Of a stretch of 40,914 bases of DNA, positions 3,024 to 38,645 are shown one piece after another. A program made the translations under genes and the position numbers. Positions within the stretch are counted from its first letter, which is position 1. Each line of letters opens with the position of its first letter. Source of the stretch: a virus; the IMG/VR virus record IMGVR_UViG_3300045988_066297, one strand, 5' to 3'. The notes under the pieces were generated by a model. It saw only the letters and a list, made by a program, of their open reading frames with translations, did no database searches and was not told where the DNA came from.

Positions 3024-3351
3024 GGTCCTCTCCCTTCTTCAAAAGTTCATCAATATAAGACTTCATTTCTTCCTTCGTGACGTACTGTGACATATTCTCA
3101 TTTTTGGCAGGCTCTTTCCTCTCCGTAAAGTCGAACGTCCGAAGCGGCTGCGGCATTCCATTTACGTCCGTGCTCTTGATATAGAACACCGGGTTTTCTG
3201 AATCCATCAGCCATACCGTCCTTCCAGCCGGAACAATATATGCTTTTGCGCCTGCCTCCCCCTGCACCCAGATCGGTGCAGAAGCTTCCGGCTGTTGAAA
3301 GCCCTGCCCGGAATATCCTCCTGCGTATGCATAAGGATTAAAGTTCATCAT
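3007..3351 (-). CDS. Hypothetical protein
   Basis: 114-aa ORF directly downstream of the endolysin, with an AGGAGG-type RBS (revcomp of cctcctag at 3359-3366). No motif recognised. Confidence 0.5.
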   Translation of the reverse strand: MMNFNPYAYAGGYSGQGFQQPEASAPIWVQGEAGAKAYIVPAGRTVWLMDSENPVFYIKSTDVNGMPQPLRTFDFTERKEPAKNENMSQYVTKEEMKSYIDELLKKGEDHESTV

Positions 3352-4954: not shown

Positions 4955-5959
4955 TCAGGATGCCTTGTAAGAGCAAGCGGTCTCGATACGTACCATGTAG
5001 TCCTCAACCAGACGCTCTGCAGTCTTGGTCGCCTTCCAACCGATGGTCGATCTCTGATCGAGCGGATCAGCCGTACCGGCAGAACCCTTCTGCTTCACGA
5101 TGAGCTGCAGGCCGCCACCCTCGATGTTGGTCGTACCATACGCATTTGCGGCGATAATCAGGGTGGAATATACATCAAACTTCGTGCCGGAACCGCCACC
5201 GACCTTCTCGAAGATCTTCGCCTCGGTGGTCTCTACGAAACGCACACCGGCGATCTTACCGATCTCGTTGTTGTACATCTTGTCCGGGGAGGTGTACTTC
5301 TGCCACTCAACCCAGTTCGGGTCGGACATCAGGTCGTAAGAAACATCCGGGTGAATGATACCAACATAGCTGCCATCGATGGTACGTGCATTCTGACGCT
5401 TCAGCGTTCTCACGGCTGCACGAATCGCCTTGACGGTCAGTGTATCGGTCTCGAGGAGTGCCGCTCTACCGGCTCTCTCTGCCTCGTGGTACTGAACATT
5501 GGTACCGCCGTTCAGAATCTCACGGGTGACCGTATCCAGGCTTCGACCAGCCTGAGAGCCGATAAGCTGCGTCGCCTCAGTCTTTACGTTGTCGATCGAT
5601 GTCAGATCGAGCAGGTCGGTGATGATAACATAACCGCCGTACTGCTTCACCTTCGCAGTAAGTGCAGAGGTATCAAGCGCCTGGCCATCCGGTGTTACAC
5701 CCTCGACGAGTGCGTCCTGGATCTTCGCCAGCGGCATGAACTGTCTGAACTCGATCTCCTTACCGTTACCGGAAGGAATGTTTCTCTTCTGACCGAACTG
5801 ATCATGCACGAGCTCTGCTTCTGCAAGGTCAATGAGGTAATCAGAGTAATAGGTCTTGATCTCCGGTGCCAGGTTATTACCGGACGACGCGGAGGTCGTT
5901 GCGTTGATAACGTTATCAAACGCATGAAGGTTTAACTTATAAATCTTTGCTGTATGCAT
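4955..5959 (-). CDS. Major capsid protein (N4-gp56-like, HK97 fold) with N-terminal Prp cleavage motif
   Basis: 334 aa directly after the scaffold gene. NLAPEIKTYYSDYLIDLAEAELVHDQFGQKRNIPSGNGKEIEFRQF matches the N4-gp56 MCP family signature as I recall it. The N-terminus MHTAKIYKLNLHAF-D resembles the L27/80alpha Prp site. Confidence 0.85.
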   Translation of the reverse strand: MHTAKIYKLNLHAFDNVINATTSASSGNNLAPEIKTYYSDYLIDLAEAELVHDQFGQKRNIPSGNGKEIEFRQFMPLAKIQDALVEGVTPDGQALDTSALTAKVKQYGGYVIITDLLDLTSIDNVKTEATQLIGSQAGRSLDTVTREILNGGTNVQYHEAERAGRAALLETDTLTVKAIRAAVRTLKRQNARTIDGSYVGIIHPDVSYDLMSDPNWVEWQKYTSPDKMYNNEIGKIAGVRFVETTEAKIFEKVGGGSGTKFDVYSTLIIAANAYGTTNIEGGGLQLIVKQKGSAGTADPLDQRSTIGWKATKTAERLVEDYMVRIETACSYKAS

Positions 5960-5970
5960 AATGCTCCTTT

Positions 5971-6840
5971 TCAGAAGCGAACATCTCCAAACATAGAGCG
6001 CTTGGCGATCTCCGCTCTTTCCTGTTTCGAAAGTTTATGCACATCCTTTGACACCTTCGCGGCAGCCTGTGAACCGATCGCGTTCTCTCTCGGTCTCGAC
6101 CTTCTCGCTGCCATGTCCTGCACGGTCGCGCTTCGTACGGCATTGGCCGTCGTCTGCATCGCGCCGGACACGATCTCGTCTCCATGCACCGCATAGAACG
6201 CTCTCTCCATGGAAAGACCGCTCCGAAGTGCACTCTCAAAATCTGGATTACGAAGCTCTGTATCGAGATCGAAGGACGGGAACAGCGCCTTTAAGTTTGC
6301 GCTCTGCTTGTCCCACTCTGCCATCTGCCGATCAATCTGCTCGCGCCGCTCTGCCTGTTTCTGGGCCTCGCGGAACTCGCGGTTCTCTCTTTCCAGGTTG
6401 TCCCAGTTACGCTGCTCGTCGATGGTGCGCCCGTTCGCTTCTGCGCGCTCTGCGTACAGGAAATCATCATCCTTCAGCGCCTGCGTGATGGACTTGATGT
6501 CGCTGGCATCCTCGATGCCATACTTGGTGGCGAGCATCTGCATCACCTGGTCGCCGGCCTTTACCCGGCCTTCCATGGACTTATAGTCCTTGAACCGCTT
6601 GTTGAACACTTCCTGGAACTTCGTATCAAACCACTTCTTGGCTTCATCCTGGTGCCCGGAAATGAATGTCTCAAACTCTGTGCCTGTTGCTGCCGTGGCG
6701 TCCGGCTGATTACCGTCTGTGATCAGACTCGCCCCATTGCCAGCGGCGGCCTGGCCTGCATCGCCCGATGCTCCTGCTGCCCCGGAAGCGGCACCGCCGT
6801 CTCCCTCAAACGCATGGAGGTTTAACTTGAATTTCGTCAT
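5971..6840 (-). CDS. Scaffolding protein with N-terminal Prp cleavage motif
   Basis: 289 aa, highly charged and helical, with a G/A-rich N-terminal region, immediately upstream of the MCP. The N-terminus MTKFKLNLHAF-E shares KLNLHAF with the MCP. Confidence 0.7.
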   Translation of the reverse strand: MTKFKLNLHAFEGDGGAASGAAGASGDAGQAAAGNGASLITDGNQPDATAATGTEFETFISGHQDEAKKWFDTKFQEVFNKRFKDYKSMEGRVKAGDQVMQMLATKYGIEDASDIKSITQALKDDDFLYAERAEANGRTIDEQRNWDNLERENREFREAQKQAERREQIDRQMAEWDKQSANLKALFPSFDLDTELRNPDFESALRSGLSMERAFYAVHGDEIVSGAMQTTANAVRSATVQDMAARRSRPRENAIGSQAAAKVSKDVHKLSKQERAEIAKRSMFGDVRF

Positions 6841-6913: not shown

Positions 6914-6951
6914 AATGTAAATGCTTTGCAAGCGAAAACAAACCGACCTAT
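6914..6951 (-). promoter_or_regulatory. Late promoter candidate 3 (ATAGGTCGGT + 22 nt + TACATT), upstream of scaffold/MCP
   Basis: Minus strand reads ATAGGTCGGT (6951-6942), 22 nt, then TACATT (6919-6914). It lies directly after the terminator at 6952-6981. Confidence 0.55.
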
Positions 6952-6981
6952 GAAAAAGGAGCCCCCGTCGCCGGGAACTCC
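6952..6981 (-). terminator. Rho-independent terminator after the giant gene
   Basis: Minus-strand RNA GGAGUUCCCG-GCGA-CGGGGGCUCC forms a 10-bp stem (two G.U pairs) with a GNRA-type loop, followed by UUUUUC. Confidence 0.7.
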
Positions 6982-7001
6982 TCATTTCATCGATATTCGC
7001 T

Positions 7002-10000
7002 TTAATACTTCTTGAAGGTGCTCGCCTTATAGCCTGCGATCTCCCACAGCTTCTTCTGCGCATCCGCAGAAAGTCCGCTGCCTCTCAGTACCTTCTTCAC
7101 GGCCTTCCGCCGGTCGTCACCATCCTTGCCGACCTTCGCAACGTCCATCTCCTCTTTCAATGAGAAGTAGTCCGCTGCATCATAACCGGCATCCGTCCAG
7201 TCCTTCAGCTTCGACGGCTTGCCCGACTCGATGCCCTTCTTCGAAAGGATCTCGTCCATGGCCTGTTCTCTTGCGAGCTGCTTCAGGTCGCCTGCAATCT
7301 TACTCTGCTTGTCCTCGCTGTCACTTGGGTTAATGCAGTCGTCCGCCAGATCGTAGTAGTAACTCTCATATGCGTCCTGGTACTGCATGTACTCCTTGCC
7401 GCTTAGGTCGTAGGTCTTACCATCCGACTTGATGGAAGTATTCATCACGCCAGGAAGAATCGATGCGTTACCGTTGCTCTCCACGATGTCGTAGATTGCC
7501 TTTCGGTCTGCATCTTCCACGCCGTGATCCGACTCCTTCCGGTATGCCTTCAGTTTGTCGAGTGCAGCGCGACGGATCTCTCGCTCATCCTCCTGGCCCT
7601 TCGCAAGGCCGATCGTCTTCTGATAGTACGACTTCATGTTACTGTCGAGCGTGCTTTCCAGTGCCTGCTCGTTCGTGCCGTAAGAGCTGTACATCATTTC
7701 CGAGTCTTCTGCCTTATCATAGATCCAGTTGCTGAGATCATTCGAATAGGTATTATCTCTAAGGTACGTATTCTTTACGCCCATCGTCCAGTCACGCTTG
7801 CCCTTCACTCCATTTCCGTCGTTGATTGGGAAAAGTGCGGAAGGATATGACCACATCCAGCCGAGAATATTCTTGCCGAAATGGTCGGCCTTCTGTGGAC
7901 TAATGCCGAGATACTTTCCGAGCAGGTACGCCATTTCGCTTGACTTCTCCGTGTACTGCAGCGCCGGCACCTTACCTTCATTCTGCTTACTTACGATCGG
8001 ACGGTTGAGGTAATCCTTATTCGCTCTAAGCTGCGACATTTCGCCAACAGCACCGAGTGAGCCAAGAAATCCGGTCGTAAAATCATCGTTTGCCGACTGT
8101 ACTCCATTCGCCATTACATTGACCGGATATTCTGCCAAATCAGACACAATACTCGGAAGTGTGCTGTCTGTAAGGTAGCTGTAGTATTCGTCGAAAGCGT
8201 GATCGTTATCGCCCACCGTTCTTTCAAGAAGTCTCTCAAAGAACGACTCCAGCACAGCTACGTTCTGTCCCTTCGGGATGGTGAAATACTTTCCATCGCC
8301 TAATGAGATACAGAAGTAGGAGTTCTTCGTGTAGTTCGAAAGCATATCGAAATCATCCTTGCTTTCTTTATTTCTACGCGACCATGCGACGACGAGTGCG
8401 GCCATGATCAGAGACAGCGCTGCGGAGAATGCAATTCTACCTGCAATCGCCCGTCCTCTCTCCTTGCCGTTCACCTCAACCCATTTTCCGGTACCGTCTC
8501 CGCCGTCTCCACCGTCTCCGGCACCGCCGACGAATTTCATCTCCCGAAGATCCTCGGCAGTGAAGTACCGGATCATCTTGTCCGTTGCCTGCACGCCTGC
8601 ATTGAAGAACGGGATAAACTGGTTGAGCGTTTTTGAATTGATGCCATTTCTACGGAAGTTTACCGTGATATCCATCGCAGCATAAAACGCCTTCTGCGGA
8701 TTCATGCCGGCTTCACGGCACATCTTATAGGTTGCGAATCTCGGCCCCATCTCGATCATATCCGAAACAAACATCGCCCATTTGAGCGGATTCATTTCCG
8801 GATGTTCTCTCGTAGAGCTGAGTAACTTTCGCATGTCCTTTACATAGTCCTTGCTGCCGGACCATACCGGTGCACCCTCACCGCCCATCGCAAGATACTC
8901 GGAGAAGAGCGGATCAACACTCTTGCCCCGTGCGTTGTTGATGTAGTTAAGGTAGGTATCTGCGACACCCTGCAGCATCTTTCCAGGATTCTTCGTCGCC
9001 ATTGAGTACGTAAGCAGCGTCTGTAGATCTCTCGGCGCATTGGAGAAGATCGACCAGATCACATTGTTTCCAGTGATGTTTGACGTGATGAATCTTGAAA
9101 CCGCTCCGAAAGCAGTGATCACCTTGCTGGCGTTCCGGTAGTCCATGGAAGTGATGGAGCTAAGAAGCAGCGGATCATTGATCTTCCAGAACTCCGGCTT
9201 ACCGGCTACAAGAATCTTGATCTCACCTCTGTTCGGTTTCGCCTTTCCAAGCTGGAACTGCGTCATCGTATCATCGATGGAACCAATGACTTCCTGTAAA
9301 GCATCCTGCATTTCCGGTGCGATTTCGATACCGGCAATGTCATGCGTTTCGTTATAGAGACGGTCCTTGATACCGCGAAGATCGACTTCGACCGGAACCT
9401 TCGGATCAGGCATCTTTTCCATGAATAAAGCATCTGCTTTACTTCTTACGGCTTCTCGTCTGAGCTGAAGCATGACTGCGTTTCTCGCGGCTGCATTCTG
9501 GAGCTTCGTGATGTTGTCGATGATGTTATCGACCGGATGGATCAGATCACGTCCGCTGCCCTTTGCCTTGAACAGCGAATTGCCGCGCTCCTTGAAGCCT
9601 GCTCGGAAGAACGGTACATAGCAAGGGTTCTCCTTCTGCATCGCCTTGTATGCGTCCGCAGAAATCAGCCCCTCGCCAACCGCATAAGTCCACATGAAGT
9701 CGCTTTCGAACTTATACAGTCTGTCAGCAGCTTCGATGAACTCCGGGTGTTCGGATTCGATCTCCTCGATCCGGTTCTCCATCCACTGCGCGTTGTTTTT
9801 GCGATCATCCGCAAATACGCGCTTGTTCTGGGCGATCCACTCGATACCATGCTTCACGGCCAGGTACTCACCGAATGCGATATAAACTTCCTTGTCGTTC
9901 ACATCGATACCGGCGAGCGCATCTTTAAGCCCTGGGCCAATATAATTACCGTCCAGATCATAGATGCCCTCTATGATGGTCTGTGCCACTCGTGCATCCG

Positions 10001-13000
10001 TATAGGCTGCATTCGTCGCATAGGTATATGTATTGGTGCCGTTTCTGACATCGAACTCGCGGAAGCCATGAACGGAATCTACATTTTCCTGGTACCAGCC
10101 ATGATACCAGTCGTGAAATTTCTCCATGTTCGTCCGGTAGTCCGGTCGGCTATCCTCTTTCAGTCTGATCGAGCTCTTCGCGTCGCCAGCATCCATCGAA
10201 TAGTATGCGTTCACCTGATCCGCGAAGCCGTTAAACTTCGCAAGCTCCCCAGGGCTCATCTGCTTGAGGATGTAGTCTGTGAGCTTCGGAAAATCGATAC
10301 GCGCTGCATCGCGGTTCTGTAAGTAGTACCTTACGAACTCTGCAAGTCCCTCCTTTAACTTGACCGATGCACTCTTTCCACTATAGAGATCAGCATTGTC
10401 CGGGTTCATGAAAAATGCGGTCTCGATGTCCTTGCGCACTTCCTTCGGAAGCCTTGCGCTGCCAGTAATGTTGTAGGTCTTGTCGAGCCAGTGACCGAAC
10501 TCGTGCGAGAATGTCGGAAGGTCGTTCGTGATCTTCGTCCGAATTCCGCGGTTCCGCTCATTGAACTCGCCCATATTTCCTTCACCCTTCACATACCGGG
10601 TGCCGGATGTTACATTGAATCCCCAGTCATGTGCCGCCTGGCCGATGATGTCTGACAGACGCTTCGATGAGGTCTCCGTACTATCCTCGTTCTTCTGAGC
10701 CGTCCAGCGTTCCTCTGGCTTCTCGCCATCCTCGCTCGGTGTTGGATTCTTCTTAGAGTTCAGCACTCCGCCGGACTCATCGCCCGTGTCGTCATGCTTC
10801 GACATACTATGAAGCACACCATCGTCAGATGATACCGGTCTTACATCAGATACGGGGTTATCGGCGATAATTGATTCAATTACAGCTTCCCCTCTCTTCC
10901 CTGTAGGAATAAAATAGCGCTCTTCACTGTTGATGATTTCCTTAATAATGCCAGGCATATCATCAACCTGCCACGTATTTGTACCGGTTAGTTCAATTCT
11001 CCATTCTCCCGAAACTCTGCGTTTTCTTAATCTCCATTTATCGCGCTTTAATGCTACCTCCTGATTGCTATCAAGAATTTCAGACATTAATTCCTTCGGC
11101 GTATACTGTTTCTTTGTTCGGGTTTGATTTAATGATCTAAGAACAGTATCGACAAAAGACGGTGAAATTTCGCGTCCAAGATACTGAGTACCATCCGAAG
11201 TTACAACTCGAAGGACTTTTCCTCGCGCATTTTCAATCTTATCCCAAACAGGTAAAAGCACACCTGTAAGTAAATGCAGATTGCTATCAAGATATTTAGG
11301 CGTTTTTTTAATTTCTTCGTTCCATGCATCTTCCCATTCGTTCTTTGGGATCTCTATAGGATTAAGTTTTTCTAACGTTTTGTCTTGATAAATGCTCCTA
11401 TATTCATAAACTGGTGATTTTATTTCATAAAGATCATGTACACGTCCCTTCGTATCTGTTTCAGTGCGGTGCATCTTATATACTGCACGAACCGAGCCAT
11501 CGCCAAATCTGCACAGTCTTAATCTGCCTTCTTTAATATAAAGATTCCATACTTCATCATCGGAACAATAAAACAGTTCCGGCATATCTTTGAAACTAAC
11601 AATAGTAGGCTTTCTATAGACTTTCATTTGAACGTACTGTGTTTCTGCTCCGGTTCTTTCGTCTACATGCACAGTTTTCTTGTCTATAACTTCGATTTTA
11701 TCGGCTTTGACAGATTCCATGCCACGGTCCAATGTTCCGTTCTGAATTGCAGTTTCTGTCATATCATTAAGCAGTGAGTAAAACTCGTTAAATACTTTGT
11801 TCTGATCTTCAACTTTTAATGACAATATACGGTTTAGGAACTTCGGCACATTTCTCAGATCTGGTGCTGATTCATTAATTGCAAAACCGCCCTTTTCATA
11901 AATGTTAATTCCTAAACTCTTGATTAAATCTCTGTCCGCACTTCTATAGAAATTCTCTAGTGCGTCTGCTGCTATAGGGGTTTCAAGATTATCCTTCTCA
12001 CTGAAAATACCACTACCAGCGTCACGCTGTCCCTGCGTTAATGCACCCAACTGATTGAGACGTTTTGCAATCGTCGCGGTAAATCTCTTTTGCCCCATTA
12101 CATTCGTTGTGACGAGTTTGTAAATAGGAGCACTTGCCTCATTGGTTCTATGCGTACGCCCCAGGCCCTGAATTGCGGCATCCGCCTTCCAACCAGGCTG
12201 AAGGATATAGTGGACTCTCTGCTGCTGATTTTTAGCTCTGCGATCAGCGTGATAACTCTTACCTGTGCCACCAGATTCAGAGAATACAAGAATACGTTTA
12301 GTTCCATTCTGAAATGCTTTCGCATCGGCTTCGCCACTTTTAACGCTTCTGTTTTCAATTATTCTCTTGACTGAACCATCAGCCTGCCTCTGATTGACAA
12401 CTCTTCTTGTTCTTCCTGTTACCTCCGCTACATTTTCAGTTCCAAATTCGTCAAGAAGCATTTCAAGCGGTCCGTCTGGGACCTTCATCTTTCCGATTTT
12501 AGTAATGAGCTGGTCTCGAAGTGCAACAGCTCTTTTGTCGAGAACCGGATTTCCTTGACTGTCCTTAACTGGTCTTGATAAGCGATTACCGTTTTCATCC
12601 TCATAGTCTTCGTATACCTGGACAGGAAATGACTTTTTAAGATAGTCAATAAGCGATTCCGACGGAGTAAGATCAAGGTTCTCAAGATCCCCTCCGTTTT
12701 TTTCGTTTTCCGCGATCTTTCTTTTCGCAGCCGCTTCATTCGTATTTGTGAGCTGAATAACTACACTTCTGCCATCGTCAAGTTGCTTTCTTATATCGTC
12801 GATCACACTAGGCATCGCCATAGAGGTGATGATCTGATTATAAAAGCTCTGAAGTCTTGACCAGAACTGGCCAACAGCTATAGCACGTGCATTTCTATTT
12901 CTGCTCTGACCTGTAATTTCGAGTGCAGAATCAAGATTCTGTAGGACAATTCGCCATCCGTCGCTCATTGTGTCGTAAATTTTTGTCTGAGCTGGTGTCA

Positions 13001-16000
13001 GCTCATGTTCGACCGTGTCATACTCTACACCTTCGTAGCTAATGCTTCGCGCCATATATGAACCCATAGCCTTCATATCTCTAGCTACAAGCTCCATGGC
13101 AGCAAGTCCGCCGCTGGAAATCTTCTCATAAAAATCGTTAAAATTCGCAAACGGTGTTCCCTTCCCCCATAGACCGAGTCTGTCAAGGTACGCAAAGTTA
13201 GAAATATCAGATGCACCAGTTGCTGTAGCGTAGAGAATTCGTGCATTAGGAAATGCCTGCTGAAGTTTAACGCCCCATACTGCCATTTGAGAAGTTGATG
13301 TCTTGCCCCATCCCTTTCCCTCAGTAGGAATAGCGTTTTTCATCATGTGGGCTTCATCAAAAACAATCACACCGTCAAAGTCTTTCCCAAGCCATTTGGT
13401 AAGTGTGTCAATTCCGTCCTGCTTACGGTCTCCGATCTGCTTGTATGAAGCAAACATAATACCTTCATCGTATGGAATATCACTGTTCTTGAACTTGGAA
13501 AAATCATATATTTCGGATGCATCCTGTCCAATATCTGACCAGTCTCGCTGCGCGTCAAGCCTAAGCGAAGGGTTCTTACTTACCCAAACAGCCTTTCTTC
13601 TCCCCTGGTTAAAGTTATCAAGAAGAATTGACGCAATTTGAACTCCCTTTCCTACGCCTGTTCCGTCTCCGATAAAATAGCCCTTACGTTCACCGCTTGG
13701 AAGTATCTGAGAGTGCGCCTGCCCTGCATAAACAATATTTTCAAGCTGTGCGCTTGACGGCTTACCGGAGTCAATAAGACTTTGCGGAAGATGCGGCGTA
13801 TATGTTGGCGTAGGCGGTTCTACTGCGCCCATGGCTGCACTTTCTACGAGCTTACCCGGGTGTGGCTTTGCTCCTTCAATATGCACCTTTGCTGGCTCAT
13901 ACGCAGTAAATTTACTATCAATATTAATCTTCGGCTTGCTTACACCTCGCTGTGATCCCTGAACATCTCCATGTACGAGTCTGACATTTCCATCAGACTT
14001 TCCATCGTTCTGATCGCTAACTGTTCCTGGTTCTGATTCGGATACCCGTTCTCCAGACTTTTTAAGTTTTTTAGTACTTCCTGCACTTCCTGATACTCTG
14101 CCACCGTTTCTAACGCGTGCACCAGTTCCTGATTCTCGTGAGGAATCCACTCTTCCATTCCGTCCAGTATCGTTTCTTCTTCCGTCGGCTGCATTTGAAG
14201 CCAGTTCGTCTGCCACTCCGTCTGTCTTTTCGGAAGTACTTCTTCCCTGTACCATGTTGCCAGATTTTCTATTCTGCTCCACAAATCTTCGTTCATTTCT
14301 CACTCCTTCCAGGTCGGTCAGCAGTTCGGAAAGGTCCTTGTATTCTCCGGTTAAGGTCTTTCCTTCCTGTGGGCCTACCTTATCAATGACTACCAGCTGG
14401 TCATCGAAAGTAGTTCCGTACTTCTGATAGTTGGAACCGTCAATGCGCACGTTCGACCGGATGGTGTATTCCCTGCGGAGGTCATTCCACCACGCGGAGA
14501 ACGCCGGTGCATCATCCGCCATGCCGCGACCGAGAATAGCGACCAGTCTGCCGCCTTCCTGGAGACGGTCGAGTGCCTGCTCGATGTGCCGCTTTGCATT
14601 GGCTGTCTTGTTGGTCTTCATTCTGCCTGCAGTAGATGAAAACGGCGGATTCATGATAACCACGGTCGGCTGAATATCGTCAGGAAGAACGTTATTGATC
14701 TGCTCTGCATTCTCGTTGAATGTGCCATCGAGTCCGAGCTCATTGAGGAAAGCAAGTCTGCGCTTTGAAAGCTCATTTCCATAAACCTTCGCGCCCCATG
14801 CTTTACCCCAAAGTGCAAGACCGCCAATACCGGCGGACGGCTCAAGCACAACATCATCACTCGTGATATTTGCCAAGCGTGCTGCCGTGAAAGCGATCGT
14901 CGGCGGCGTAGAGAACTGCTGATATGATTCCATCTCTTCGGTTCTCTTCGTCTTCGTAGGGATATTGCGCAAGATGTTCTGAAGCTCTGACAGCGTGTTG
15001 AGTGCATCTTCAAGTGATCCGTTTCCTGCCTTTACGAAATCGGCATTCATCAGATACTTGTTGATGCCCAGCTCCATACCGTCATAAGCATCTTTTACGG
15101 AATATGTGCCATCAGCCATCGTTCCGCCATAAGCATTATTCGCAACATCGAAAAGCCAGTTTGCCGTAAACGACTGGCCGGACGCAACCTTCGCTGCAAC
15201 TCTATCCGCGATGGATGACTGCGGATTGCTGTTTGCGACCGGCTTTTTCTCCGGCGCTGCAGGACTGGTTTTTGTCGCTGGCGCTGGCTTTGATGCTTCC
15301 TTCGGTGCTTCCTTCGGCTCTTCCTTCTTTTCCTCATTCTTCTGCATGCGGATGTTGTACTGATTATACCCCAGTTTCCACATAGCGTCAGCAGCATCCG
15401 GTCCGACCGGCATCTTGTAGAACTCAGCGAAGTTGCTGTCATTCGATAATCTCGAATACGGCTCGCCATTTAAGCCCGCCTGATAAACCTGTGCCATGAA
15501 ATTGTCCCACTTATAGACGGTCGATGTATCGACAGACGGCCACTGCTCAGAGCCAAGCGAGAAGAAATCGATGTATGTTCGTCTCTCTGCTTCCTTCGTC
15601 CCGAAACGCTTGTACGCTCTGTCCGTTAACGCATCGGCCACATCCGGCTGAAGAATTCCACCAGAAACAAAGCTGTCCGCTTCGGCAGCCGCTTTCTCGT
15701 TCCTCGTGAGGCCATTATTTTCCGCAAATTTAGTAAGATCATCGATAACCGCGTCACGTGACTCATACGGTTTTGTGACATAGCGAAGAGCCCGACCATC
15801 GACGATCACGCCGCCGAACTTGTCGTTTTTCGTGTCACGAAGGCGGCCAACATAGCCATCCTCGTCTGCGGTTATTTCGTACTCGATCTGATCAGCCGTA
15901 AACTTTCCGTTGCTCTTGAGCTTATCATGAAGCTGATTCGTCGTGAGCTTCCTGTCGGAATTTCCGACAGGTTCGTTTGTTTCTGGCTCCGGTTCCTGCT

Positions 16001-18419
16001 GCGACTCGCTGATCTCCTGTGCCGGCGCACTCTCATCAGAACCTACGTGCTTTCCTTCGAAAATATCTACGATCTTCTGTAAATCTTCCGGCGACGCATG
16101 ATTAATCGCATCCTGGTTGATGATACCGCCCTGATTAAACGCCCGGTCGATAATATCGCCCTGAGACTTCGGCTCGTCTTCGCTCTTTGGTTCCTCAATC
16201 AGATTCTGACTCTCCTCAGCCGTCGGCTCCTGGATCAAGTCCTGGCTGTTCTCTGTCTCCTGTGCGACCGGCGCTGCATCCTCCGTATTGATCGCTTCTA
16301 CGGCTGCCTGTGTCGCTTCCTTCGCTGCATCCGGTGTAGAATCCGCCGTGTTCTGCTCTGAGCGCTCCTTCAGCGCATCTACCGCCTCATTCACGGCATC
16401 ATGCGTAGCGTCCGCCACATTCTTCGTGTCGTCCGCAGTTTTCGTCCGCTTCTTTCTCGACTTCTTCAGCTTATCGACAGCCGCATTGGTGGCATCCTTC
16501 GTGTCTGATCCGCTACCCTCTGTCGTTACCGTAATATTGTTATCTGTTGAAATATCGTCCGACACATCGGCATCACTAAAAACCGGTGCTTCCGACGCCG
16601 GTGCCTGTGTGTCCATATTCTGTGCAGGAGCTTCACTGAATTCAGTGTAGTCGCGCATATCATTAAACAGCGTATTATCGTTTACGAACTGATCGCTCTT
16701 GAACTGATTCTGATACTCACGCTCCGCGCTTCTTCTCTGCTGCCAGTCGTCTGTCCGGTGCTCGATCTCGTTTCCGGCAAGGTGCAGCACATCACCGCCC
16801 ACGTTCATAAGCATCGAATTCGCCGCGCCAAGCGCCGCAGAATACCAGAATTCAGGGTCACTGAAAGAAAGACCCTTGACCGGATCAATGTTTCCGTTCT
16901 CGTCCTTACCCTCACCAAGGATCACATTCTTTGCGATCCCCTGCGTCCAGTACTGCAGTCCTTCCTGTGCTGCCTCACCGAGCGCATTCGCTCCATGGCT
17001 GCCGAGACGGTACAGAAGCCCTCTGCCAATATCAGACTTCACCGCCTTGTTGATTCCTTCTGCCGCCGCCTTTGCGATACTCGTATTGCCGAGTGCCTTC
17101 GCGATTCTTCCGCCACCGAATGCCTCGATACCACCGAGCAGCTTCTCCGTGTAGTACTCAGACGCCGCTTCCTCGCCAGCGTATAAAGCGGATTGAAGAT
17201 TGCTATGCCCGTTGTTGATTGCTTCCTGGTAAGAGTGCCCACCCTGTGAAGCGCCGAACAGCACATTTGACAGCGCCTGGATGCCTTCATTGCCCAAACC
17301 TGCAGCGCCACCCACAGCACTGCCGAGTGCAGCTGCGCCTACCATATTACCAGTCGAGGACGCAATATCCTGCAGTACGCCTTCGGCCTTTCCGGCCTTT
17401 TCCCTGCGCATCTGTGTCTCATAGTCATTCACAGACTGCGCACGCTTCTTATTGTCGAGCGTCGCCCACTGCGCGATCTTCTGAAGGCCCTCGCCACTGT
17501 TCGTAACGCCTCCGACGAACTGATTAGCAATTCTACCGGCGGCCACAGCATTCGCACGGTTTCCCTCTACGTTCTGCTTCGCCACGCGACGGTTGATGTC
17601 GTCCATGATCTTAGACCGGTACTCTTCCGCTGCGTCTCTGCCCTGCGAGTCGTACAGATGGTTGTACATGTACTTCTGTCCTGGCGTCATTTCAGAGTAC
17701 TGCCGGATCTGTTCAGGAATAGCCGCTGGATTTCTTTCGAGCTTTCGCATCTTCTCCGCTTCTGCGTCCGCCATCTTCAGCGGATTGCCGCCAGCGTTCC
17801 TGAGCGCGTTGATCGGTGCTTTCACCGCATCGACGATCACCTTGTTGATACCCTTGTTCGCGAAGTCCGTCATGGTAGCATGATGCCGCGTCGCCTGTGC
17901 AGTCGTATTGTTGCCCTTCTTCGCAACATAATCTACGAGCGACTTTGAGACCGTCGTCTGCGTGTTTCCGGTTCTCGTCGCTGTACTGGGTGTGGCAGTA
18001 CTCGGTGTAGTATTGCTCGGCGTTGAGCGGTTCTTTAGCTCGTTCAGCGCATCGTTTCGGATGTCATCACTCGTCAATGTCTGCTTCTTCGGCGTCGGGC
18101 GAGAATATCCATAGCGATTGCCTACATCATCCACCAGGTTCCTTGAAACGGTGCTCGCAGATCCTGTGTTGTAGGTCGCCTGCCGCTGCTGCATGCTGGT
18201 CTTCCGCTGTGAGCGCTCATGCGATGACTGAATGCTACGCTGCGTCGCAGAGTTCAGAGAATAATTGTCGTCCGCATCCTTCTCGTAGTAGTTCTCACGA
18301 TAAAGCTGCTGTGTCGGCTGATTCTCAATATGGTTCTGTTCGTCTCGATGCTCAGACTGACGGAGCAGCTCGTACTTCGTCTCTCTGTTAGCGATTTTTG
18401 ATCTCTTCTTTGCCATCAC
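7002..18419 (-). CDS. Giant polyvalent protein (3,805 aa): N6-adenine MTase + Strawberry-notch-like helicase + zincin metallopeptidase motif + C-terminal TM-containing region
   Basis: One uninterrupted ORF of 11,418 nt. All named motifs are in the same frame (see the domain sub-features). It occupies the portal-to-scaffold slot where MuF/gp7-type minor head proteins usually lie. Confidence 0.9.
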   Translation of the reverse strand: MMAKKRSKIANRETKYELLRQSEHRDEQNHIENQPTQQLYRENYYEKDADDNYSLNSATQRSIQSSHERSQRKTSMQQRQATYNTGSASTVSRNLVDDVGNRYGYSRPTPKKQTLTSDDIRNDALNELKNRSTPSNTTPSTATPSTATRTGNTQTTVSKSLVDYVAKKGNNTTAQATRHHATMTDFANKGINKVIVDAVKAPINALRNAGGNPLKMADAEAEKMRKLERNPAAIPEQIRQYSEMTPGQKYMYNHLYDSQGRDAAEEYRSKIMDDINRRVAKQNVEGNRANAVAAGRIANQFVGGVTNSGEGLQKIAQWATLDNKKRAQSVNDYETQMRREKAGKAEGVLQDIASSTGNMVGAAALGSAVGGAAGLGNEGIQALSNVLFGASQGGHSYQEAINNGHSNLQSALYAGEEAASEYYTEKLLGGIEAFGGGRIAKALGNTSIAKAAAEGINKAVKSDIGRGLLYRLGSHGANALGEAAQEGLQYWTQGIAKNVILGEGKDENGNIDPVKGLSFSDPEFWYSAALGAANSMLMNVGGDVLHLAGNEIEHRTDDWQQRRSAEREYQNQFKSDQFVNDNTLFNDMRDYTEFSEAPAQNMDTQAPASEAPVFSDADVSDDISTDNNITVTTEGSGSDTKDATNAAVDKLKKSRKKRTKTADDTKNVADATHDAVNEAVDALKERSEQNTADSTPDAAKEATQAAVEAINTEDAAPVAQETENSQDLIQEPTAEESQNLIEEPKSEDEPKSQGDIIDRAFNQGGIINQDAINHASPEDLQKIVDIFEGKHVGSDESAPAQEISESQQEPEPETNEPVGNSDRKLTTNQLHDKLKSNGKFTADQIEYEITADEDGYVGRLRDTKNDKFGGVIVDGRALRYVTKPYESRDAVIDDLTKFAENNGLTRNEKAAAEADSFVSGGILQPDVADALTDRAYKRFGTKEAERRTYIDFFSLGSEQWPSVDTSTVYKWDNFMAQVYQAGLNGEPYSRLSNDSNFAEFYKMPVGPDAADAMWKLGYNQYNIRMQKNEEKKEEPKEAPKEASKPAPATKTSPAAPEKKPVANSNPQSSIADRVAAKVASGQSFTANWLFDVANNAYGGTMADGTYSVKDAYDGMELGINKYLMNADFVKAGNGSLEDALNTLSELQNILRNIPTKTKRTEEMESYQQFSTPPTIAFTAARLANITSDDVVLEPSAGIGGLALWGKAWGAKVYGNELSKRRLAFLNELGLDGTFNENAEQINNVLPDDIQPTVVIMNPPFSSTAGRMKTNKTANAKRHIEQALDRLQEGGRLVAILGRGMADDAPAFSAWWNDLRREYTIRSNVRIDGSNYQKYGTTFDDQLVVIDKVGPQEGKTLTGEYKDLSELLTDLEGVRNERRFVEQNRKSGNMVQGRSTSEKTDGVADELASNAADGRRNDTGRNGRVDSSRESGTGARVRNGGRVSGSAGSTKKLKKSGERVSESEPGTVSDQNDGKSDGNVRLVHGDVQGSQRGVSKPKINIDSKFTAYEPAKVHIEGAKPHPGKLVESAAMGAVEPPTPTYTPHLPQSLIDSGKPSSAQLENIVYAGQAHSQILPSGERKGYFIGDGTGVGKGVQIASILLDNFNQGRRKAVWVSKNPSLRLDAQRDWSDIGQDASEIYDFSKFKNSDIPYDEGIMFASYKQIGDRKQDGIDTLTKWLGKDFDGVIVFDEAHMMKNAIPTEGKGWGKTSTSQMAVWGVKLQQAFPNARILYATATGASDISNFAYLDRLGLWGKGTPFANFNDFYEKISSGGLAAMELVARDMKAMGSYMARSISYEGVEYDTVEHELTPAQTKIYDTMSDGWRIVLQNLDSALEITGQSRNRNARAIAVGQFWSRLQSFYNQIITSMAMPSVIDDIRKQLDDGRSVVIQLTNTNEAAAKRKIAENEKNGGDLENLDLTPSESLIDYLKKSFPVQVYEDYEDENGNRLSRPVKDSQGNPVLDKRAVALRDQLITKIGKMKVPDGPLEMLLDEFGTENVAEVTGRTRRVVNQRQADGSVKRIIENRSVKSGEADAKAFQNGTKRILVFSESGGTGKSYHADRRAKNQQQRVHYILQPGWKADAAIQGLGRTHRTNEASAPIYKLVTTNVMGQKRFTATIAKRLNQLGALTQGQRDAGSGIFSEKDNLETPIAADALENFYRSADRDLIKSLGINIYEKGGFAINESAPDLRNVPKFLNRILSLKVEDQNKVFNEFYSLLNDMTETAIQNGTLDRGMESVKADKIEVIDKKTVHVDERTGAETQYVQMKVYRKPTIVSFKDMPELFYCSDDEVWNLYIKEGRLRLCRFGDGSVRAVYKMHRTETDTKGRVHDLYEIKSPVYEYRSIYQDKTLEKLNPIEIPKNEWEDAWNEEIKKTPKYLDSNLHLLTGVLLPVWDKIENARGKVLRVVTSDGTQYLGREISPSFVDTVLRSLNQTRTKKQYTPKELMSEILDSNQEVALKRDKWRLRKRRVSGEWRIELTGTNTWQVDDMPGIIKEIINSEERYFIPTGKRGEAVIESIIADNPVSDVRPVSSDDGVLHSMSKHDDTGDESGGVLNSKKNPTPSEDGEKPEERWTAQKNEDSTETSSKRLSDIIGQAAHDWGFNVTSGTRYVKGEGNMGEFNERNRGIRTKITNDLPTFSHEFGHWLDKTYNITGSARLPKEVRKDIETAFFMNPDNADLYSGKSASVKLKEGLAEFVRYYLQNRDAARIDFPKLTDYILKQMSPGELAKFNGFADQVNAYYSMDAGDAKSSIRLKEDSRPDYRTNMEKFHDWYHGWYQENVDSVHGFREFDVRNGTNTYTYATNAAYTDARVAQTIIEGIYDLDGNYIGPGLKDALAGIDVNDKEVYIAFGEYLAVKHGIEWIAQNKRVFADDRKNNAQWMENRIEEIESEHPEFIEAADRLYKFESDFMWTYAVGEGLISADAYKAMQKENPCYVPFFRAGFKERGNSLFKAKGSGRDLIHPVDNIIDNITKLQNAAARNAVMLQLRREAVRSKADALFMEKMPDPKVPVEVDLRGIKDRLYNETHDIAGIEIAPEMQDALQEVIGSIDDTMTQFQLGKAKPNRGEIKILVAGKPEFWKINDPLLLSSITSMDYRNASKVITAFGAVSRFITSNITGNNVIWSIFSNAPRDLQTLLTYSMATKNPGKMLQGVADTYLNYINNARGKSVDPLFSEYLAMGGEGAPVWSGSKDYVKDMRKLLSSTREHPEMNPLKWAMFVSDMIEMGPRFATYKMCREAGMNPQKAFYAAMDITVNFRRNGINSKTLNQFIPFFNAGVQATDKMIRYFTAEDLREMKFVGGAGDGGDGGDGTGKWVEVNGKERGRAIAGRIAFSAALSLIMAALVVAWSRRNKESKDDFDMLSNYTKNSYFCISLGDGKYFTIPKGQNVAVLESFFERLLERTVGDNDHAFDEYYSYLTDSTLPSIVSDLAEYPVNVMANGVQSANDDFTTGFLGSLGAVGEMSQLRANKDYLNRPIVSKQNEGKVPALQYTEKSSEMAYLLGKYLGISPQKADHFGKNILGWMWSYPSALFPINDGNGVKGKRDWTMGVKNTYLRDNTYSNDLSNWIYDKAEDSEMMYSSYGTNEQALESTLDSNMKSYYQKTIGLAKGQEDEREIRRAALDKLKAYRKESDHGVEDADRKAIYDIVESNGNASILPGVMNTSIKSDGKTYDLSGKEYMQYQDAYESYYYDLADDCINPSDSEDKQSKIAGDLKQLAREQAMDEILSKKGIESGKPSKLKDWTDAGYDAADYFSLKEEMDVAKVGKDGDDRRKAVKKVLRGSGLSADAQKKLWEIAGYKASTFKKY
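8382..8435 (-). other. Predicted transmembrane helix inside the giant protein (aa ~3329-3346)
   Basis: IAFSAALSLIMAALVVAW is flanked by basic residues (RGRAIAGR / SRRNKESK) and preceded by the G/D-rich linker GGAGDGGDGGDGTG. Confidence 0.6.
10260..10650 (-). other. Zincin-like metallopeptidase region of the giant protein
   Basis: HEFGH at 10491-10505 (aa 2639-2643). A downstream EGLAEF could supply the third (Glu) ligand in a gluzincin-like arrangement. Confidence 0.55.
12060..13790 (-). other. Strawberry-notch-like (AAA_34 + Helicase_C_4 type) SF2 helicase region of the giant protein
   Basis: GYFIGDGTGVGKGVQIASILLDNFNQGRRKAVWVS (P-loop 13644-13670), VIVFDEAHMMKN (DEAH 13347-13358), and SGGTGKSYHADRRAKNQQQRVHYILQPGWKADAAIQGLGRTHRTNEASAP (GRTHR 12147-12161). 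These match Sbno-family helicases motif for motif. Confidence 0.85.
14400..15060 (-). other. N6-adenine DNA methyltransferase domain of the giant protein (gamma-type motif order)
   Basis: SAM-binding motif I VLEPSAGIGGLALWG (14821-14843) lies about 65 aa before catalytic motif IV VVIMNPPF (NPPF 14640-14651). Confidence 0.85.
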
Positions 18420-18454: not shown

Positions 18455-18492
18455 ATTATGAGTGAAGGCGTAAAAAAACGTCACCGACCTAT
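18455..18492 (-). promoter_or_regulatory. Late promoter candidate 2 (ATAGGTCGGT + 22 nt + CATAAT), upstream of the giant gene
   Basis: Minus strand reads ATAGGTCGGT (18492-18483), 22 nt, then CATAAT (18460-18455). The flanks CCAT...TTTTTACG are shared with the site at 26781-26818. Confidence 0.55.
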
Positions 18493-18541
18493 AAAAATGG
18501 ACCGCAGTGTTACCACCACGGCCCCAAAAAGGAGGAAACGA

Positions 18542-20105: not shown

Positions 20106-20935
20106 GAGCCACCTCCGAGAATCAGATCATTTCCGTCACCTGTTGGGCCGCCGGATGAGCTGTCATCGGTTGAGTCGCCAGGAGATGAACCACCACCCGA
20201 CAAAGAGCCGACAAGATTCTTAATATATGAACGGATCGTCTGACCGTTGTAGTACAGCGTCCCGTTGATATCCACTCTGTCCTGCCCATTCACGGACAGT
20301 GTTGCTTGACTTCCATCCCACCCGGCCCAGAAGAGAAGTCGTCCGGTCCCGACGACATCGCCGGTTGACATACCCGTCACCTCATCATCTGACTGGAAAA
20401 TGTTACGACCGTAACTGTCATCGCAGATAAAATCTCCGATAGACACGTATCCTTTACGTGCCTTGAACGGAATATCCGAGTTCGTACTGTTTATCGTAGA
20501 ACCGTTGATGGTGCCGCCGATGATCTTCGCTGCACTCACTGTGCCGCTGAACGTTCCGTTACCAGCTGCATCGATCTTCAGATTCGTCGCATCGACCTCG
20601 AATTTACCGGTCGTCAGCTTGATGCGGTCTCCGGAAAGCTCCATCGAAGAGGAACCGGACGGCGTTTCGGCTTTCAGAGATAGCAGGTCTGACAGCAGCG
20701 TGATGGATGTGTTGTAGTGCTTCTCATTATCCTCCACCCGAAGTTCGATCTGGTCTGCCTTCACCTCGACGGATGCCAAGCGCTCACCGCGCTGCGCGTA
20801 GATCAGTCGCGCGGCCTCCGAATAGTTCTCTTCCGGCGTGAGATTATTAAACATGTAGGTCAGATTTTCATTCAGTTCATAAAGATACGACTCGATCTTA
20901 CTACTATCGACGGTATCCTGTGTGAATATAGCCAT
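20102..20935 (-). CDS. Fibre/spike-like structural protein
   Basis: The ATG at 20935 gives MAIFTQ (the ORF-track start at 20944 is a GTG). The N-terminal YLYELNENLTYMFNNL... pattern followed by IELRVEDNE resembles N-termini of phage minor structural/fibre proteins. The C-terminus is G/S/T-rich. Confidence 0.4.
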   Translation of the reverse strand: MAIFTQDTVDSSKIESYLYELNENLTYMFNNLTPEENYSEAARLIYAQRGERLASVEVKADQIELRVEDNEKHYNTSITLLSDLLSLKAETPSGSSSMELSGDRIKLTTGKFEVDATNLKIDAAGNGTFSGTVSAAKIIGGTINGSTINSTNSDIPFKARKGYVSIGDFICDDSYGRNIFQSDDEVTGMSTGDVVGTGRLLFWAGWDGSQATLSVNGQDRVDINGTLYYNGQTIRSYIKNLVGSLSGGGSSPGDSTDDSSSGGPTGDGNDLILGGGS

Positions 20936-22466: not shown

Positions 22467-22902
22467 GTGGCCTCCTTAATGGCATGTGCGTCCGTCTGTA
22501 CCAACTCGAGTACTGGCTCCACTCGTTCTCAAATGCCGCTGCTTCCATGTTGTAGCGATTGACTTCTCCGTTGTAGAAGTCAATCTTCGCAAACACATAG
22601 GTCGTATAGCAGGCGTTGAACTGATCCGGTATCAGCAGCTCACGTTCTGCATCCTCGTCATAGACATAGGACTTGAATACTGGAGGCTCAGCCGGTGGCT
22701 GCTCGTCCGGCTTGTAGTTATCCACGCCGGGAAGGACCGTGACCGGCTCTTTCGGAATCGGTGGCTTCGGCGGCTCGGCACGAGAAATCACCTGATCCAT
22801 CGCCATGAACTCGACCTCGTTCACCCACTGCGTGAGCATGTCCTTCGTGTACTCACTCGGTCTGAAGCTCGTAATATTCGCGATTAGTTCAGATAGTGTC
22901 AT
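22435..22902 (-). CDS. Head-tail adaptor / head completion candidate
   Basis: 155-aa ORF between Prp and the structural genes, with a proline-rich central linker. The function is assigned from position only. Confidence 0.25.
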   Translation of the reverse strand: MTLSELIANITSFRPSEYTKDMLTQWVNEVEFMAMDQVISRAEPPKPPIPKEPVTVLPGVDNYKPDEQPPAEPPVFKSYVYDEDAERELLIPDQFNACYTTYVFAKIDFYNGEVNRYNMEAAAFENEWSQYSSWYRRTHMPLRRPHATTTDHNIR

Positions 22903-23209
22903 ATCTCACCTCTACATTCTCCGGGTAGTTTCCCTCCAGGCTCTCTGCTCCGATCTGAAACATCCGTACTGCAGTGTCGATCTCCGGCGTCGGGCCATCC
23001 GGTCGCTCGATCATGATCATGAAGTTGCCTGGATCATCCTGATACATCGGGAGCGCCTCTGGATGATCATGGAGCATATAGTTAATCAGCGTATAGGCCA
23101 GCATGGATACCGACGCGCACACGATGTCGTGTCCCGGGTCGTAGTCTGCATGGCCGATCAGCGTGATCATGGTATTACGATGTTGGTTTAGTATTCGAAT
23201 GTGCGTCAT
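22889..23209 (-). CDS. prp: Prp-family cysteine protease (ribosomal-processing cysteine protease homolog)
   Basis: ITLIGHADYDPGHDIVCASVSMLAYTLINYM... and the C-terminal YPENVEVRY align with the Prp/DUF464 pattern (GHAD..G.DIVCA.VS ... Y.ENI.L.Y) known from S. aureus Prp. It follows the portal gene. Confidence 0.8.
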   Translation of the reverse strand: MTHIRILNQHRNTMITLIGHADYDPGHDIVCASVSMLAYTLINYMLHDHPEALPMYQDDPGNFMIMIERPDGPTPEIDTAVRMFQIGAESLEGNYPENVEVRYDTI

Positions 23210-38636: not shown

Positions 38637-38645
38637 GGAGGAATT

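Follow-up and report, generated by a model that had tools for sequence, protein, structure and literature searches.

The window analysed here is the IMG/VR virus record IMGVR_UViG_3300045988_066297, a stretch of 40,914 nucleotides (nt) of viral DNA, in which a single giant gene on the minus strand occupies the space between the portal block and the gene for the major capsid protein (MCP). An exact 101-bp direct repeat at both ends (1-101 and 40814-40914) is the overlap typical of a circular assembly and leaves a unique length of 40,813 bp. The giant open reading frame (ORF) runs from 7002 to 18419 in a single uninterrupted frame and comprises 3,805 codons when counted from a GTG, as in the ORF listing; its second codon, however, is an ATG at 18416 (18416-18414) with AAGGAG 8 nt upstream, and a product of 3,804 amino acids (aa) is therefore likelier. 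This protein has a mass of 422.6 kDa and an isoelectric point of 5.55, and its gene, which ends with a stop codon at 7002-7004, takes up 27.97% of the unique sequence. An earlier reading of the same DNA, made from the letters alone (the sequence-only reading), had described the uninterrupted frame and a genome share of about 28%, both of which hold, and a length of 3,805 aa, which is probably one residue too long. As laid out below, the protein is best explained, with moderate confidence, as a phage-type polyvalent protein of the DarB-like/LPD38 group, that is, as a packaged entry protein with a conserved two-ended chassis, which carries a DarB-like methylase-translocase as its cargo.

The giant ORF is real, since the same protein is called, without any difference, on three independent contigs of 20-50 kb and an intact homologue of 3,821 aa (P0041) exists. 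That it arose by chimeric assembly or by sequencing errors joining several genes, for which its unusual length is the one supporting point, is hardly credible, because an identical 3,804-aa product would have to result three times over, P0041 and many homologues of 3,000-4,700 aa are collinear with it, and gp01 of phage VvAW1, which comes from a finished isolate genome, has the same layout. No near-identical DNA was found among GenBank phages.

Polyvalent proteins combine 2-15 domains of distinct function in one long chain (PMC5512222), and an N-terminal domain (N-domain), an N6-adenine methyltransferase (MTase), a Strawberry-notch (Sbno) helicase, a zincin and LPD38 are found within the 3,804 aa. 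The chain is divided as follows.

aa 1-205 (17802..18416, minus strand): polar, basic, low-complexity leader rich in S, T, N and Q, defined by composition and matched only in close relatives (P0041, P0047)
aa 206-565 (16722..17801, minus strand): conserved all-alpha N-domain
aa 566-814 (15975..16721, minus strand): acidic linker rich in D, E, T and A, probably disordered, defined by composition, with homologues only among close relatives
aa 815-1030 (15327..15974, minus strand): globular 'domain X', with phmmer matches in P0063, P0070 and P0157 and no match in Pfam or PDB
aa 1060-1400 (14217..15239, minus strand): pre-MTase region and predicted N6-adenine MTase
aa 1518-2540 (10797..13865, minus strand): predicted Strawberry-notch-type helicase of the SWI2/SNF2 clade
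aa 1518-1816: AAA_34 (Pfam, E 8.2e-114)
aa 1983-2234: Helicase_C_4 (Pfam, E 7e-81)
aa 2235-2540: C-terminal extension of the helicase, which always accompanies the helicase in homologues
aa 2585-2720 (10257..10664, minus strand): zincin-like metallopeptidase, which opens the C-terminal module (C-module)
aa 2721-3296 (8529..10256, minus strand): mostly helical body of the C-module, with the most conserved core at aa ~3040-3290
aa 3297-3310: G/D linker
aa 3328-3345 (8382..8435, minus strand): hydrophobic, transmembrane (TM)-like helix
aa 3354-3533 (7818..8357, minus strand): LPD38, large polyvalent protein associated domain 38 (PF18857)
aa 3534-3804 (7005..7817, minus strand): charged, helical C-terminal tail, conserved in the family alignment

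The methyltransferase-helicase block and the two conserved ends

The motifs on which the sequence-only reading had based its domain calls all lie in frame; its coordinates for motif I (14821-14843) and motif VI (12147-12161) were slightly off and are corrected here.

aa 1190-1199 (nt 14820-14849): VLEPSAGIGG, motif I of the MTase
aa 1256-1259 (nt 14640-14651): NPPF
aa 1583-1591 (nt 13644-13670): GDGTGVGKG, Walker A
aa 1687-1690 (nt 13347-13358): DEAH
aa 2083-2097 (nt 12126-12170): QGLGRTHRTNEASAP, motif VI, with QGLGRTHR at aa 2083
aa 2638-2642 (nt 10491-10505): HEFGH
aa 2689-2694: EGLAEF

The prediction of a Strawberry-notch helicase, already made in the sequence-only reading, is unambiguous, since both Pfam models are matched over their full length (AAA_34 at 1-306 of 306 positions, Helicase_C_4 at 2-270 of 271) and score well beyond the threshold, and the Walker A, DEAH and VI motifs are all preserved. 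The MTase is recognised by the PHROG profile phrog_6263 'DNA methyltransferase' (E 1.9e-12), and the motifs QQFSTPP (TP motif), EPSAGxGG (motif I), NE and MNPPFS (motif IV) are invariant in 13 diverse homologues. A TP motif on the N-terminal helix, motif I and NPP(F/Y) make up the pattern of the DarB-type gamma-class adenine MTases (Iyer et al. 2017, PMC5512222), and in the giant protein the TP motif, motif I and NPPF follow one another in this gamma-class order, as had been proposed. The MTase lies directly N-terminal to the SWI2/SNF2-clade helicase, and aa ~1025-2530 move as one unit in many homologues. Such MTase-SWI2/SNF2 dyads, among them occasional Strawberry-notch versions, have been described, and in the DarB-type dyad the MTase is preceded by LPD36, which consists of four helices with a GxGU motif (PMC5512222). 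At the corresponding position, the giant protein has a conserved region of about 70 aa with invariant G, K, D, D, E and N, which is widespread in homologues; Pfam gave no match to LPD36 in the giant, and the conserved GxGU motif could not be placed in this region.

When aa 1060-2540 were compared with 50,697 phage records by tblastn, 10 weak matches were obtained, none of which covers the helicase; the MTase segment matches genes annotated as 'DarB-like antirestriction' in the phages Parlo and Skulduggery over the MTase part only. The Strawberry-notch dyad thus appears to be essentially absent from cultured phages and common among metagenomic giants. Sequence and profile searches of PDB returned nothing significant for the Sbno block or its C-terminal extension. 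The G+C content is 0.41-0.45 across the helicase part (positions 10000-14000), compared with 0.52-0.55 elsewhere in the gene and in the head module. An origin of the MTase-Sbno block from conjugative elements is not supported: of the two such giants scanned, P0102 carries LPD3 and an InPase domain, which is confined to the phage type, and P0187 contains helicase and MTase only.

The C-module opens with the zincin-like domain, whose HExGH motif, a Glu-x-x-Ala-Glu located 47 residues further on and an Arg are invariant in 23 sequences, while the Asp three residues past HExxH is conserved in at least 90% of them. In the giant protein, these residues are HEFGH at 2638-2642, Asp 2645 and, on a later helix, Glu 2689 and Glu 2693. 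In the AlphaFold2 (AF2) model (predicted local distance difference test score (pLDDT) 76, predicted template modelling score 0.69), these residues lie on a core made up of an N-terminal helix, three strands, the HExxH helix and the Glu helix, in the order H3-14, E18-20, E32-35, E40-43, H49-64 and H99-116 (H, helix; E, strand). This core, together with the Asp, characterises the common phage-type metallopeptidase (MPTase) clade (PMC5512222), and on motif and modelled topology the domain is accepted as a probable zincin.

The helical body that follows is matched by phrog_9854, and its core at aa ~3040-3290 contains invariant N, R, D, E, R, D, T, F, G, N, F, N, Q and R residues. The single TM helix predicted earlier at 8382-8435 is confirmed as a hydrophobic helix: aa 3328-3345 form the most hydrophobic 18-mer of the whole protein (Kyte-Doolittle 2.32), preceded by the G/D linker and basic residues and followed by charged residues. 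An equivalent helix (Kyte-Doolittle 1.3-2.3), flanked by a basic cluster on its N-terminal side and by NNxDDE on its C-terminal side, is found in every aligned homologue that spans the region, that is, in all but the short P0023, and the combination of protease and TM helix, which had been thought unusual, is therefore a constant of the family. Directly behind the helix lies LPD38 (E 5.2e-19; 69.5 bits, the cutoff being 27), which 25 of the 27 family members possess. The domain is confined to the phage type of polyvalent protein, a (pro)phage-encoded class that is likely packaged in the capsid (PMC5512222). The C-terminal 1,100 aa or so, in which no motif had been named before, thus hold LPD38 and a conserved core.

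A search with aa 2560-3804 retrieved 39 proteins (P0001-P0039), including a homologue from a Clostridia metagenome-assembled genome (MAG), and in all 39 the module of about 1,200 aa ends at, or within about 80 residues of, the C-terminus. Past the module, 25 of 27 members continue for 0-14 aa and the other two for about 80 aa; the N-terminal extensions before it are 0-975 aa long, with ART-PolyVal, zeta toxin, PBECR3 and LPD3 among the domains that they contain. Among cultured phages, the module matches 337 records by tblastn, which include Vibrio podophages such as VvAW1, the 933W/Stx family, Bcep22-like Burkholderia phages such as DC1, Bacillus megaterium podophages (Page group), a Pelagibacter phage and the Methanosarcina virus MetMV. 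In MetMV (MK170447.1), a hypothetical protein encoded at 40663-41685 matches the core (query aa 370-722 of the 1,245-aa segment, E 2e-8), and the C-module therefore crosses the divide between bacteria and archaea. Sequence and profile searches of PDB with the C-module gave nothing significant, and the same holds for Foldseek comparisons of both AF2 models with PDB, in which the hits to membrane proteins and helical bundles were regarded as noise and not used. In the viral library BFVD, the C-module model has 51 significant fold matches, all of which are C-terminal pieces of large polyvalent proteins.

The N-terminal 1,100 aa or so had likewise been described as motif-less, but they contain a domain of about 350 aa that recurs in hundreds of giants, and the conserved region before the MTase. 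An exhaustive HMMER search with the N-terminal region found 409 relatives; in most of the best 150 of these 409 matches, many of which are proteins of 2,000-4,670 aa, the domain (aa ~215-560) sits near the N-terminus, and aa ~1025-1130, directly before the MTase, form a second widespread conserved region. The signature of the N-domain is GG-x-x-Y-x-E ... E-x-x-T-N-x-LLGG ... SEA-x-QE-Y-x-Q, and 10 residues (Y, A, G, E, L, G, E, E, Q and G) are invariant in its alignment. Its AF2 model contains helices only and forms an all-helical bundle (pLDDT 74.8), and a G/A-rich, moderately hydrophobic helix is located at aa 358-375. The domain is absent from Pfam and PHROGs and has no significant match in PDB by sequence, profile or fold (Foldseek on the AF2 model). 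In cultured phages, tblastn found no N-domain, and the sole detection, made by profile only, is in VvAW1 gp01 (aa 205-328, 40.8 bits). Word-index searches with aa 1-1130 and aa 201-600 gave essentially nothing, probably because words from G/A-rich and low-complexity stretches filled up the list of candidates. Both the N-domain and the core at aa 3040-3290 are thus folds without known relatives in PDB-type searches.

Chassis, cargo and mosaicism in the family

The architecture of the family was read by local phmmer comparison of the giant protein with the best 150 representatives of the 409 relatives. Parts of the layout recur in hundreds of metagenomic proteins of 2,000-4,670 aa, and the whole of it in several; the full architecture is present in P0041, P0077 (3,918 aa), P0085 (3,696 aa) and P0061 (4,320 aa). 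Others, among them P0058, P0062 (4,670 aa), P0088, P0115 and P0159, match from the pre-MTase region on, with the N-domain undetected, and P0157 matches from domain X on, with the N-domain only marginal. In P0072, P0081, P0124 and P0138, the N-domain and the C-module occur without MTase or helicase; some giants share only the MTase-Sbno block (aa ~1025-2530), which is joined to other C-termini, and further N-domain giants carry ADP-ribosyltransferases (ARTs), PBECR RNases, LPD23, MuF_C or RadC instead. The C-module, too, is fused in relatives to ARTs, RNases, zeta toxin and other proteins. The simplest reading of these combinations is a two-ended conserved chassis, composed of the N-domain and the C-module, with exchangeable cargo in the middle. 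The chassis is common to phages of Gram-positive and Gram-negative hosts, and under such a division of labour entry into any host would be expected to require the chassis, whereas the cargo would matter on restricting hosts only.

Comparison with P0041 points to a mosaic gene that bears signs of cargo exchange: the C-module is 96-100% identical (aa 2601-3400), whereas identity is about 49% in the second half of the N-domain, 32% in the linker at aa 1401-1500 and 42-59% in the C-terminal extension of the helicase. The G+C dip over the helicase is consistent with such an exchange. The low-G+C helicase segment is also the segment most diverged from P0041.

Flanking signals, neighbouring genes and phage type

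The giant gene is embedded in a late head module that is encoded on the same strand and includes TerL, a P22-like portal, an 'internal virion protein' and the MCP. The gene order is TerL, portal, Prp, four genes, the giant, phrog_13908, MCP, holin and endolysin.

25001-26395, minus strand: TerL
23175-25001, minus strand: P22-like portal
22889-23209, minus strand: phage-encoded Prp cysteine protease
between Prp and the phrog_511 protein, minus strand: 155-aa protein
20904-22466, minus strand: 520-aa protein three genes upstream of the giant, phrog_511 'internal virion protein' (E 7e-62)
between the phrog_511 protein and the giant, minus strand: 280-aa protein, then 475-aa protein, both without informative matches
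18499-18524, minus strand: terminator of the preceding gene (-19.9 kcal/mol, z -5.3), between the upstream gene and the promoter-like site
18484-18455, minus strand: weak sigma-70-like promoter GTGACG-18-CATAAT (9/12 matches)
6945-6990, minus strand: intrinsic terminator directly 3' of the giant ORF, hairpin and U-run (-26 kcal/mol, z -5.46), then UUUUUCAU
next after the giant, minus strand: 289-aa protein, phrog_13908
4955-5959, minus strand: MCP, head module
after the MCP, minus strand: holin and CHAP/choline-binding endolysin

The sequence-only reading had bracketed the giant gene by a terminator of its own (6952-6981), which indeed folds strongly, and by a promoter-like element (18455-18492), at which a sigma-70-like site is present but weak. 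A 13-mer, TTT(T/C)ATAGGTCGGT, occurs at 6942-6954 and 18483-18495 on the minus strand, directly behind each of the terminators on either side of the giant gene. Since about one match would be expected by chance, two are not significant alone; the identical placement after both terminators suggests a shared regulatory or promoter element.

The order portal-giant-MCP had been recognised correctly, but the labels 'adaptor' and 'scaffold' given to the neighbours are positional guesses only. The same applies to the assignment of the giant to the minor-head-protein slot, which is a positional analogy: a MuF/SPP1 gp7-type minor head protein was considered and rejected, since Pfam scans gave no Phage_Mu_F match in the whole protein (E <= 0.1) or in eight segments (E <= 1), which comprised all but the Sbno helicase segment. 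The phrog_511 protein is a likely partner of the giant in a set of internal or ejection proteins.

No ORF other than the giant exceeds 608 aa in the ORF listing, and the phage therefore has no ORF of tape-measure size. The gene content points to a temperate, podovirus-like phage, with a tyrosine integrase, a CI-like repressor, an ERF recombinase, a Lar-type domain and a PAPS-reductase-like protein encoded elsewhere in the genome. The host is probably Gram-positive, because the lysin is a choline-binding CHAP enzyme, a Prp protease is encoded by the phage and a homologue of the giant is found in a Clostridia MAG. The lysogeny module lies on the opposite strand (37828-39787, plus strand) and encodes a CI-like helix-turn-helix repressor (37828-38259) and the tyrosine integrase (38726-39787); GC and AT skew change sign at this module. 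A close relative, the JGI contig Ga0116616_1000178 (L001), has a serine recombinase instead, and an RVT_1 reverse transcriptase beside a DUF6273 protein, which may together constitute a diversity-generating retroelement. The Lar-type restriction-alleviation domain (Pfam E 8.5e-9) is a separate one, fused to a sugar-isomerase-like N-terminus, and the Lar-type gene and the PAPS-reductase-like gene are located at 28039-28635 and 29390-30136 on the minus strand. A PAPS reductase is encoded near a DarB-like giant in Bcep22-like phages as well (JC1 gp65).

The heptad KLNLHAF opens both the scaffold-like protein (MTKFKLNLHAFEG..., 6808-6828, minus strand) and the MCP (MHTAKIYKLNLHAFDN..., 5918-5938, minus strand), and a KLNLHAF-type pattern has only these two matches across all six frames. 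We take the heptad to resemble the Prp cleavage site of Firmicutes L27 and of phage 80alpha capsid proteins, which suggests that Prp trims the N-termini of the scaffold-like protein and the MCP. The giant protein was rejected as a Prp substrate, since it contains no such motif.

A probable packaged entry protein: interpretation and comparison with known systems

The class assignment, made already in the sequence-only reading, is supported by the profile hits, the invariant motifs, the homology to VvAW1 gp01 and the homology of the C-module to proteins with relatives in virions. Packaging of the giant is suggested by its likeness to two such proteins. JC1 gp69, which contains LPD38, was identified by 51 peptides in virions purified on CsCl (PMC9144972), and phi24B gp47, which combines LPD38 with an MPTase, is abundant in virions, unseen in cryogenic electron microscopy and was proposed to be an ejection protein (bioRxiv 10.64898/2026.04.10.717836). 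Cleavage of peptide bonds, ATP hydrolysis and DNA methylation by the giant are predictions from its motifs.

On the favoured reading, the protein would be made late, together with the head proteins, and would enter the procapsid via its chassis in one or a few copies. By a rough estimate, a few copies of the giant (0.4-1.7 MDa) would be of the order of the ejection-protein load of P22. As infection starts, it would leave through the portal and the short tail, ahead of or with the DNA, and the hydrophobic helix, perhaps together with the G/A-rich helices of the N-domain, might engage the cytoplasmic membrane within the entry conduit. Either before delivery or once delivered, the chain may be cut by the zincin at its flexible linkers, and the MTase-translocase, freed or still tethered, could track along the entering genome and N6-methylate its adenines, thereby protecting it in cis as has been proposed for P1 DarB. 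The sequence-only reading had called the protein an injected anti-restriction or host-takeover effector. Its place among the head genes and its DarB-like polyvalent class agree with this proposal, but 'effector' is probably too narrow, because the module occurs without enzymatic cargo and an LPD38 protein is critical in a laboratory host: knockdown of PTXU04_00025 (gp25, LPD38) sharply cuts plating efficiency. These observations point to a core role in entry or structure, onto which anti-restriction enzymes would have been grafted.

Several observations weigh against the favoured reading. The phage has a Lar-type restriction-alleviation gene of its own, and anti-restriction therefore need not depend on the giant. 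That gp25 of PTXU04 is needed in the laboratory host suggests that the conserved part does more than counter restriction. In relatives, the gene for the giant follows the tail genes and adjoins the lysis genes, whereas here it is flanked by the portal block on one side and by the scaffold-like and MCP genes on the other, so that position alone is not diagnostic. For the MTase, Pfam (N6_Mtase, E 0.02; MTS, E 0.001) and NCBIfam gave sub-threshold matches only, the PDB profile search returned weak matches to NPPF-type MTases and M subunits of type I systems, and P1 DarB was not matched at E <= 1e-3 in the tblastn search of phage records. The zincin proposed earlier stands on its invariant motif and modelled core topology, but a significant match to a recognised zincin was not obtained: Pfam and NCBIfam gave none, the PDB profile search was empty, and the best Foldseek hit in PDB had an E of 0.17, with a probability of only 0.14-0.33 for IrrE/PprI-type zincins.

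In T7 and N4, genome internalisation is driven by enzymes. By analogy, the giant could be packaged and ejected to act as a membrane-anchored Strawberry-notch translocase that pulls the DNA in, with methylation being secondary or a self-mark. The conserved hydrophobic helix directly before LPD38 resides in the same chain as a double-stranded DNA translocase, an LPD38 protein is needed to infect a laboratory host, phi24B gp47 was proposed to be an ejection protein that forms a conduit, and SWI2/SNF2 enzymes translocate along duplex DNA (PMC5512222). We nevertheless consider an entry motor rather unlikely, since relatives with the chassis only, and others with ARTs, RNases or toxins in place of the helicase, show that the translocase is no general entry requirement in the family, and the strict coupling of MTase and helicase suggests that methylation is the point. 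A bolder combination, to which we would give only a small chance, is that both ends form a membrane-embedded entry device and the translocase at its cytoplasmic mouth reels the genome into the Gram-positive cell while the methylase marks each stretch, so that internalisation and protective methylation are coupled. If this were true, the N-domain and the core at aa 3040-3290 would represent new conduit-forming folds, which would also occur in an archaeal virus.

The giant might also remain in the producing cell as a late, membrane-tethered enzyme by which progeny genomes are methylated ahead of their packaging; in that case its place among the head genes would reflect no more than the timing of transcription. 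Its gene does lie in a late operon with flanking terminators of its own, and orphan methylases with a cytoplasmic role are encoded by many phages. However, LPD38 and the entire C-module also occur in proteins that mass spectrometry has detected in virions, relatives join the module to toxins and to enzymes that modify the host, which makes sense only if these are delivered, and the confinement of LPD38 to a class that is likely capsid-packaged (PMC5512222) points the same way; an unpackaged late methylase is therefore unlikely. Very improbable is a role in attacking competing mobile elements or in superinfection exclusion, whether by expression from the prophage or by delivery on entry, in place of protection of the phage's own DNA. 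The phage, with its integrase and CI-like repressor, is temperate, and some polyvalent domains possibly target other parasitic elements (PMC5512222), but the gene shares the orientation of the late structural genes and lies among them rather than in the lysogeny module, and a methylase-translocase without nuclease domain has no obvious offensive activity.

Giants of this kind are among the largest single investments made by any small phage, in this case 28% of the coding capacity, and what has been shown for them experimentally is only their presence in virions and, for one of them, its importance for infection. Particular to the present case are the Strawberry-notch dyad, the position of the gene between portal and MCP, and the two folds without known relatives. 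The family is under-studied; no new category is opened by this member, and nothing about it would surprise a specialist on DarB-like giants of podoviruses.

P1 DarB is the prototype of the dyad and carries an N6-adenine MTase followed by a superfamily 2 helicase in one chain, in the same order as the giant; it is a head component, which guards the incoming DNA in cis from type I restriction (PMC5512222). P1, however, is a myovirus, DarB lacks the LPD38 module and the N-domain, going by the summary in PMC5512222, and its packaging needs DarA, Hdf and other partners, none of which was identified in this phage. The N4 virion RNA polymerase resembles the giant in being an enzyme of 3,500 aa that travels in the head of a podovirus and reaches the cell by ejection, and its zincin-like MPTase region is required for encapsidation; zincin processing of polyvalent proteins has been described as well (PMC5512222). 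Its cargo, however, is an RNA polymerase, no sequence relationship to the giant was detected, and its structure appears only among the non-significant Foldseek hits.

Closer relatives are phi24B gp47, corresponding to the 'LPD5 domain-containing protein' of 933W, and PTXU04 gp25, which are LPD38 giants of 2,811 and 2,198 aa, respectively. The 933W-family protein matches the core of the giant by sequence (E 1e-7, tblastn) and the PTXU04 polyvalent protein matches the C-module by fold (E 8e-18, BFVD); in contrast to the giant, they contain other LPDs (LPD1, LPD5) and a metallopeptidase that is classed differently, and no methylase-helicase dyad is reported in the papers on them. The Bcep22-like giants (Bcep22 gp75, JC1 gp69 and the 'multidomain SLT/helicase/methylase' protein of DC1) are likewise encoded by a single giant ORF in the virion module and combine LPD38 with an SNF2-like helicase and a methylase, thereby resembling the domain set described here; JC1 gp69 consists of 4,515 aa. 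The DC1 protein matches the conserved core of the giant (E 4e-9, tblastn), but similarity to this group was detected over about 260 aa of the core only, and its members are larger, contain a lytic transglycosylase, lack a Strawberry-notch helicase and belong to phages of Gram-negative hosts.

The best counterpart is VvAW1 gp01, annotated as 'DarB-like antirestriction' (YP_007518343.1), a protein of 3,640 aa that is encoded in the virion module and is collinear with the giant from end to end at near-equal residue numbers (BLASTP E 4e-30). It comprises the N-domain core at aa 205-328, an adenine MTase at about aa 1,000-1,130, a helicase at aa 1,655-2,245, a HEMAH/EGFAEF zincin at about aa 2,636 and a hydrophobic helix, both of which align with those of the giant, and LPD38 at aa 3,338-3,504. 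No functional data on gp01 were found. The two proteins differ in that their C-modules are only about 22% identical, the helicase of gp01 is of the classical SNF2/ResIII rather than the Strawberry-notch type, its MTase fits Eco57I-type models, and its gene follows the tail and 'DNA ejection' genes in a phage of a Gram-negative Vibrio. The size of the giant relative to its genome, which the sequence-only reading had singled out as unusual, has close parallels, as gp01 occupies 28.2% of the 38,682-bp genome of VvAW1 and gp69 occupies 22.1% of that of JC1. The observation itself is thus confirmed, and class and domains were named correctly; size, genome share and domain set all have precedent in these phages.

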